From assembly GCF_050920415.1 (NCBI RefSeq), contig NZ_CP169309.1: a DNA stretch of 64,000 nt; one strand, given 5' to 3'. The position numbers were made by a program, and so were the translations under genes. Shown piece by piece: positions 63,230-63,490 of the stretch. Under the pieces are notes generated by a model that worked only from the letters and a program-made list of their open reading frames with translations, was not told the origin of the DNA and did no database searches. The DNA is from Escherichia coli. GTDB taxonomy: Bacteria > Pseudomonadota > Gammaproteobacteria > Enterobacterales > Enterobacteriaceae. Positions within the stretch are counted from its first letter, which is position 1; each line of letters opens with the position of its first letter.

Positions 63230-63490
63230 ATGTCTATGCAAAGTCAAGGAATGAACTTTGAAATGAACCTATACGCATATTTGAATAAATATGATAGTCG
63301 GCTTTCAGAAGAAAAACTTGCAATTGATAAGGCAGTTAGAGATTTATATCTTTGCAACGAACACGTGGATAACAAGAGCATTATACTGAAATTGCTCTCA
63401 TTTTTATCATCTGCTGATGACATTGTTGAAAAAGATATTATCAGGAATGCTTTGGAAGTGGTGCTTCTTTTTACATTAGACGATATTTAA
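63230..63490 (+). CDS. AriR/YmgB-family paralog (small regulatory protein)
   Basis: 86-aa ORF whose C-terminal half (EHVDNKSIILKLLSFLSSADDIVEKDIIRNALEVVLLFTLDDI) parallels AriR ([43 protein letters not shown]) encoded at 58467..58733. Confidence 0.65.
   Translation: MSMQSQGMNFEMNLYAYLNKYDSRLSEEKLAIDKAVRDLYLCNEHVDNKSIILKLLSFLSSADDIVEKDIIRNALEVVLLFTLDDI

Follow-up and report, generated by a model that had tools for sequence, protein, structure and literature searches.

The 64 000 nt stretch of Escherichia coli DNA analysed here (the window) carries a second AriR/YmgB-family gene, located between ycgX and iraM. By sequence, its product is a real, catalogued but uncharacterised member of that family and forms a distinct subfamily, so far seen in Escherichia only. 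The ORF is almost certainly a functional gene, and it was very likely present at the iraM locus ancestrally and deleted later in K-12 and most other E. coli. The explanation that best accounts for the observations as a whole, and which we consider probable, is that the AriR-like gene is the promoter-proximal partner of iraM in a PhoP-driven two-gene unit, and that the K-12 form of the locus is a deletion.

An AriR/YmgB paralogue beside iraM

The gene, its ribosome-binding site and its neighbours are placed as follows:

58467–58733, minus strand: the window's own ariR, ~4.5 kb from the new ORF and 94% identical to K-12 ariR at the nucleotide level
61995–62399: ycgX, the upstream neighbour of the new gene
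63219–63223, plus strand: Shine-Dalgarno sequence GGGAG, 6 nt 5′ of the ATG at 63230 (read from the sequence)
63230–63490, plus strand: coding sequence of the AriR/YmgB-family (PF10798) paralogue, 86 aa (ORF listing, Pfam, BLASTP, 2OXL, dN/dS and RefSeq)
63491–63737, plus strand: spacer of 247 nt between the new gene and iraM
63738–64000, plus strand: iraM, 5′ part only, the gene continuing past the window end (full gene at L001 10339–10662, from the RefSeq annotation of the identical locus)

An earlier note on this DNA had proposed a second AriR/YmgB-family gene here, and the proposal is borne out by the family profile, by 40% identity to AriR and by a match to the YmgB structure. The new protein matches Pfam PF10798 (YmgB/AriR) over model positions 2–59 of 59 (E = 6.4e-14), and a precomputed PF10798 match is found on all alleles of the gene. 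BLASTP against the window AriR returned 29/73 identities (40%) with no gaps (E = 2e-17), and a phmmer search of PDB sequences returned the YmgB crystal structure 2OXL (E = 6e-11). The pattern shared with AriR had been described as C-terminal; the similarity and the distance of ~4.5 kb stand, but that description is too narrow, as residues 14–86 of the new ORF align.

RefSeq already names the ORF (WP_001354918.1, ‘biofilm development regulator YmgB/AriR family protein’). A literature search found no study of the protein, and no family for it was found in NCBIfam or PHROGs. We rejected an assignment as the AriR orthologue: the protein is only 40% identical to AriR, it lies at another locus rather than in the ycgZ-ymgA-ariR-ymgC position, and the window has a separate ariR. 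The label ‘connector protein AriR’ that some sources attach to it is thus an over-assignment.

Searched exhaustively with HMMER, 1.84 billion cluster representatives yielded 43 family clusters at E ≤ 1e-3. The 50%-identity cluster of the new protein holds only its own alleles, and its next relatives are AriR-like proteins that are 34–43% identical. Every named copy is from Escherichia, almost all from E. coli. When one genome per GTDB species was scanned for peptide patterns of the subfamily, none was confirmed, in a scan for exact patterns that could miss diverged orthologues.

A purine-rich block at the position of GGGAG is also present in other haplotypes when these are aligned. The start conserved in all alleles is an alternative ATG, in frame, at 63236, and the true start is thus either 63230 or 63236. 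The protein is 84–86 aa long across alleles, and the G+C content of the gene is 32%.

The window haplotype and the interval upstream of the gene

The earlier note had assumed a K-12-like genome, and this assumption failed. The window is a divergent haplotype with core genes that are 95.7–97.2% identical to those of K-12. The pdeG-ymgC-ariR-ymgA-ycgZ-bluF-bluR-ycgX block (55886–62630) is only ~92% identical to K-12, with bluR alone at 98%. As the flanking core genes are 96–97% identical, this points to a segment that is locally hyper-divergent or has recombined. Where it can be aligned, the ycgX–iraM intergenic region is 74% identical to K-12, and iraM is 82% identical. The 1338 bp ycgX–iraM interval is 100% identical to those of E. 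coli MFDS1022581 and N96, and megablast found it in 18/5426 complete E. coli genomes.

The corresponding interval in K-12 is 699 bp and contains only the genes ymgL and ymgK. Hence, the earlier note was correct in recalling no annotated K-12 gene at this site; the new gene has been deleted there, and NC_000913.3 contains no characterised gene that matches the ORF.

The 62400–63229 stretch had been taken for a long AT-rich leader. It is AT-rich (35.7% G+C, in a locus of 31–36% G+C), but we rejected the leader interpretation as the stretch is a composite of hairpins, an IS3 relic, sequence homologous to ymgL and ymgK, and a promoter-like block that is conserved and lies no more than 80 nt from the ATG. 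A scan found a hairpin just 3′ of ycgX. Positions 62440–62560 and 63015–63060 are homologous to K-12 ymgL and ymgK, neither of which retains its reading frame; in K-12, the products of ymgL (36 aa) and ymgK (14 aa) have been detected experimentally (PMC6001520). Two further features lie between ycgX and the promoter-like block:

62631–62905: degraded fragment of an IS3-family transposase gene (orfA/HTH), ~275 bp, ~68% identical to intact IS3 copies at the nucleotide level
63007–63024: GCCAACC-CCAT-GGTTGGC, a GC-rich hairpin with perfect pairing and a minus-strand T-run (from the scan)

The IS3 fragment is specific to the window haplotype (16 genomes). The hairpin is conserved in gene-bearing haplotypes and disrupted in the K-12 type, where ymgK overlaps it. 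An Rfam scan of 61800–64000 at E ≤ 1 returned only two chance eukaryotic matches, and the region is not explained by any known RNA element.

A promoter-like block shared with K-12

The best-conserved intergenic stretch in a comparison of 11 sequences (seven gene-bearing and four deleted) is TTTGTTTA-N5-YRTTGA-N12-TAAATT, located ~45–80 nt 5′ of the new gene. The elements of interest in and near it are:

63099–63116, plus strand: second conserved upstream block, CTAAACAGAACTAAAACG, nearly invariant in the 11 sequences, in which TAAACA is the reverse complement of a PhoP half-site
63153–63169, plus strand: putative PhoP-box-like direct repeat TGTTTA-gcctc-TGTTGA, with one mismatch to (T/G)GTTTA-N5-(T/G)GTTTA (pattern search)
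63182–63187, plus strand: TAAATT, a −10-like hexamer separated from the repeat by 12 nt (read from the sequence)

The first half-site of the repeat does not vary, and the second reads YRTTGA in 11/11 sequences, including K-12. TAAATT is conserved in 10/11, with TAAGTT in the other, and transcription is predicted to start near 63194. In PhoP-activated promoters such as those of phoP and mgrB, the PhoP box, placed about one helical turn before the −10 element, replaces the −35 element, and the spacing from the repeat to the −10-like hexamer fits this arrangement. The promoter scanner calls only sites with a −35 hexamer and did not report TAAATT. Matches to the PhoP box are not enriched in the window (three found, 1.37 expected, and this count reached in 16/100 shuffles).

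In K-12, iraM sits directly behind the homologous promoter-like block, and its expression is PhoQ/PhoP-dependent and induced by low Mg2+ and osmotic upshift (PMC10948607; PMC5740661). AZT co-induces K-12 ymgK with iraM and the ycgZ-ymgA-ariR-ymgC operon (PMC11228462). As ymgK is upstream of the proposed promoter, its co-induction suggests that transcription may also start further upstream.

Linkage of the new gene to iraM

The ORF does lie between ycgX and iraM as the earlier note had it, but it does not sit there alone, as its linkage to iraM is tight and constant. In six of the six chromosomal gene-bearing loci examined the order is ycgX-gene-iraM, with iraM ~235–250 nt downstream. In a fourth allele type, seen in read-archive assemblies, the order is bluR-gene-iraM, with no ycgX and with other downstream genes, and the distance to iraM is 245 nt. 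The two genes are on the same strand and in conserved order, and no terminator intervenes, as would be expected of an operon. A plus-strand scan of 63491–63737 found no terminator-like and no sigma-70-like site, and no convincing RNA structure was detected in the spacer (consensus energy −3.7 kcal/mol; single-sequence z-score −1.78).

From the sequence, we lean towards co-transcription of the AriR-like gene with iraM under PhoP control. The promoter would lie ~40 nt 5′ of the start codon, with the PhoP-box-like repeat in place of a −35 element and TAAATT following it. A single transcript would run through the new gene and the terminator-free 247 nt spacer into iraM, and activation of PhoQ/PhoP by low Mg2+, acid or osmotic upshift would lead to both proteins being made together.

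The spacer is long for an operon, and conserved patches within it (ATATTTyTCTmAC and AAATAAAGAA) could represent a separate iraM promoter. Thus, the new gene might be functional but monocistronic, with iraM transcribed from within the 247 nt and the adjacency reflecting shared history, for example as cargo of an old mobile element. A promoter there could have been missed, as the scanner finds few promoters in the AT-rich DNA of this region, and both IraM and YcgX fall in phage protein families (phrog_4407 and phrog_413, respectively, in PHROGs). Against this, there is no terminator-like site after the new gene, and the distance and order of the gene and iraM have been kept across alleles with saturated synonymous divergence. 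Furthermore, the K-12 deletion removed nearly the whole spacer, yet K-12 iraM is still PhoP-induced, so that the upstream promoter suffices. We consider separate transcription of the two genes rather unlikely.

The window IraM is 72% identical to K-12 IraM in a protein alignment and scores 144.5 bits against NCBIfam NF007393 (cutoff 121). The published IraL is 58.9% identical to IraM, and the window protein falls between K-12-type IraM and IraL. When one genome per GTDB species was searched for IraM, only Escherichia albertii and a K-12 contaminant contig were returned. The IraM-like gene of E. albertii NBRC 107761 (L007 3001–3336; 111 aa, 64% identical) has a phage-like context: the gene upstream (623 aa) is on the other strand, the ORF downstream resembles a DNA methylase gene, and an AriR-like gene is lacking.

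Predicted fold and possible targets

The AlphaFold2 model of the new protein has a mean pLDDT of 79, with 86–95 in the core. The top Foldseek match to this predicted model was 2oxl_A (TM 0.96, target-normalised; rmsd 0.7 Å; 61 columns), and no other structure was returned at E < 1e-3. The modelled protein thus has the helical core fold of YmgB. Arg72 of the new protein, which is invariant in nine alleles, aligns with Arg74 of AriR. AriR binds SpoT directly, and loss of Arg74, on the surface of helix 3, abolishes that binding (PMC10704370). AriR also activates the Rcs phosphorelay (PMC3509220). Activities by which a member of the family can be recognised when expressed are Rcs-dependent mucoidy and repression of curli and/or SpoT-dependent accumulation of ppGpp (PMC3509220; PMC10704370).

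By analogy with AriR, the new protein would be an adaptor that forms dimers and binds to a signalling protein. Candidate partners are SpoT, with a rise in ppGpp as the expected effect and the Arg74 equivalent invariant, and/or the Rcs phosphorelay; from 40% identity to AriR and a single conserved arginine, we put forward an action on SpoT or Rcs only tentatively. IraM is a connector with the PmrD fold that binds RssB and stabilises RpoS (bioRxiv 10.1101/2023.01.07.523045), and an action on SpoT or Rcs would constitute a second output beside this. Given the AriR fold, the SpoT-contact arginine and the predicted co-production with IraM, a second small adaptor is what would be expected, and it would give PhoP activation a stringent-response and/or Rcs output. 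The earlier note had suggested that a paralogous connector could tie this locus to the Rcs/RpoS circuitry; this is plausible, and the linkage to iraM makes it more concrete. A more ambitious version, in which the AriR-like protein and IraM together form a two-part PhoP output that sets RpoS, the former raising ppGpp or Rcs activity by an AriR-type interaction and the latter blocking RssB, and in which a stub uORF now gates IraM translation in the ~72% of genomes with the deletion, is speculative and in our view unlikely.

The same fold also allows a different role. YmgB was reportedly compared with Hha by Lee et al. in 2007, and a modulator role is said to have been first proposed from the structure. 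AT-rich DNA is typical of H-NS-silenced regions, and the G+C content of the locus is in that direction. The new protein could on these grounds be a Hha-like nucleoid-associated or DNA-linked transcriptional modulator rather than a signalling connector. However, 2OXL was the sole significant Foldseek match, and later work places the effects of AriR on the Rcs phosphorelay (PMC3509220) and on direct SpoT binding (PMC10704370). A Hha-like role therefore appears improbable.

K-12 retains the start of the gene

In an alignment of the interval from five strains, K-12 retains the upstream region and the first 10–15 codons of the gene (ATGCAAAATCAAGAAATAAAC...), lacks the ~0.4 kb that follow and resumes just upstream of the iraM ATG. 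The same junction is present in four deletion-type sequences, which are 88–100% identical to one another. All four deletion haplotypes have an open frame of 22 codons, the TGA of which overlaps the iraM ATG as ATGA. The K-12 relic peptide is MQNQEINILMNHIKYRGIRHNK (NC_000913.3, complement of 1212000..1212068; L002 3002–3070, minus strand). Deletions were counted with a 216 bp K-12 probe that runs from the promoter block through the relic to the start of iraM and had to match as one piece; the junction was found in 3882/5426 genomes (~72%).

The first nine residues of the relic (MQNQEMNIQ) are those of the 84 aa allele of UTME-7, and an identical YcgX protein (WP_000373101.1) is common to gene-bearing and deleted strains. 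Together, these fit a single old deletion from an ancestor of the 84 aa type and not an insertion in the carriers. The gene-bearing arrangement would then be the older state of the locus, and one deletion of ~0.4 kb would have removed all but the first 10–15 codons, placing iraM directly behind the same promoter and leaving the 22-codon relic.

The reverse, a recent horizontal insertion into a few lineages with the gene-free state of K-12 as the original, might be suggested by the rarity of the gene (29/5426 genomes), its low G+C content (32%) and the phage relatives of its neighbours. However, in K-12 and in three further deletion haplotypes the start and first codons are still there, in frame and at the same position behind the same block, a pattern that an insertion would not leave. 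The identical YcgX on both sides and the lack of any copy in phage or plasmid collections also argue against an insertion, which we regard as highly improbable.

NC_000913.3 has no annotation for the relic uORF. The peptide did not turn up in the papers that could be searched, and the small-protein papers make no mention of an iraM uORF. An ATGA overlap is the geometry of translational coupling, and the uORF may couple translation of iraM. In ending as ATGA on the start of iraM, this 22-codon ORF resembles overlapping uORFs and leader peptides; it differs from them in being the remnant of a deleted protein gene and in that its peptide sequence varies between haplotypes.

A 558 bp contig (L008) in the assembly of Oceanospirillum linum ATCC 11336 is, by eye, identical to the region upstream of K-12 iraM and the start of the gene, with the relic uORF included. 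This contig is almost certainly E. coli contamination.

Distribution, alleles and selection

A more sensitive DNA search found the new gene in 29/5426 complete E. coli genomes (~0.5%). The exact protein is present on 159 contigs, and sister alleles on hundreds more. A tblastn search of 50 697 phage and 72 556 plasmid records returned no match to the new protein, and no mobile-element source was identified. One of the six examined loci, that of strain wlxctx60, has a frameshifted copy, and P0017 and P0021 have truncated or frameshifted copies. Most E. coli have lost the gene and frameshifted copies occur occasionally, so it is dispensable.

Between the four allele types dS is 0.6–0.9 and dN/dS is 0.10–0.20, and 52 residues are invariant across alleles. 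Such low dN/dS values at high dS indicate that the protein is translated and under purifying selection. That the ORF is decaying or has no function and is still open by chance, as its loss from most E. coli and the broken copies might suggest, is scarcely credible in the face of dN/dS of 0.10–0.20 at dS up to 0.9, the 52 invariant residues, an intact Shine-Dalgarno sequence and a structural model that is confident in the conserved core.

Comparison with known regulators

The closest known system is AriR itself (YmgB; K-12 b1166, PDB 2OXL, encoded in the ycgZ-ymgA-ariR-ymgC operon). The two proteins share PF10798, a predicted helical core and a similar size, along with the motifs NK-IIL and D-IR--LE-V--T-DD, which include the Arg74 equivalent. 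Their genes are 4.5 kb apart in the same cluster of stress regulators. They differ in that the new protein is 40% identical to AriR and forms its own 50%-identity cluster, and in that its partner is iraM whereas those of ariR are ycgZ, ymgA and ymgC. The new gene lies behind a PhoP-box-like promoter, while the ariR operon is transcribed from the BluR-repressed ycgZ promoter (PMC3509220). The new gene is present in only ~0.5% of complete E. coli genomes, and the deletion in 72%.

Compared with the PhoP-activated connectors IraM and PmrD, the new gene is predicted to have the same PhoP-type promoter as iraM. Its product is also small and, by analogy, probably acts by binding a signalling protein and not by catalysis. 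By prediction the folds are unrelated: IraM and PmrD form beta-barrels, and the new protein would be YmgB-like and made of helices only.

IraM links PhoQ/PhoP signalling (low Mg2+, acid and osmotic stress) to RpoS stability, and nearly all work on it has been done in K-12. Our results point to the iraM leader of K-12 as the scar of a lost AriR-type upstream partner, a regulator that a few natural lineages keep under purifying selection. If the two-part module is real, the much-studied PhoP-IraM-RpoS pathway of K-12 would be the original circuit in truncated form. This raises the questions of whether PhoP activation has a stringent-response or Rcs output, how carriers behave with respect to acid, biofilm and RpoS, and what effect the relic uORF has on IraM synthesis. 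The locus is a clean example of small regulatory genes being gained and lost within a species. The family is known and the gene itself is rare and accessory, so its general importance is moderate, and what it adds lies in its context beside iraM.

Other differences from K-12 around the locus

Three parts of the window (19940–26670, 31449–33425 and 50092–54458) were not matched by megablast to the syntenic segment of K-12 (1222000–1271000), and by this comparison are insertions or replacements relative to K-12. In the identical strain, a gene for an AIDA-repeat protein occupies the site of the K-12 ycgH pseudogene. Past the end of the window, the source strain has trkG, a transposase pseudogene and a gene for a 455 aa hypothetical protein between iraM and icd (L001 11395–15173). 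trkG is a Rac-prophage gene in K-12. The K-12 iraM–icd site holds prophage e14, and in other strains iraM is directly beside icd.
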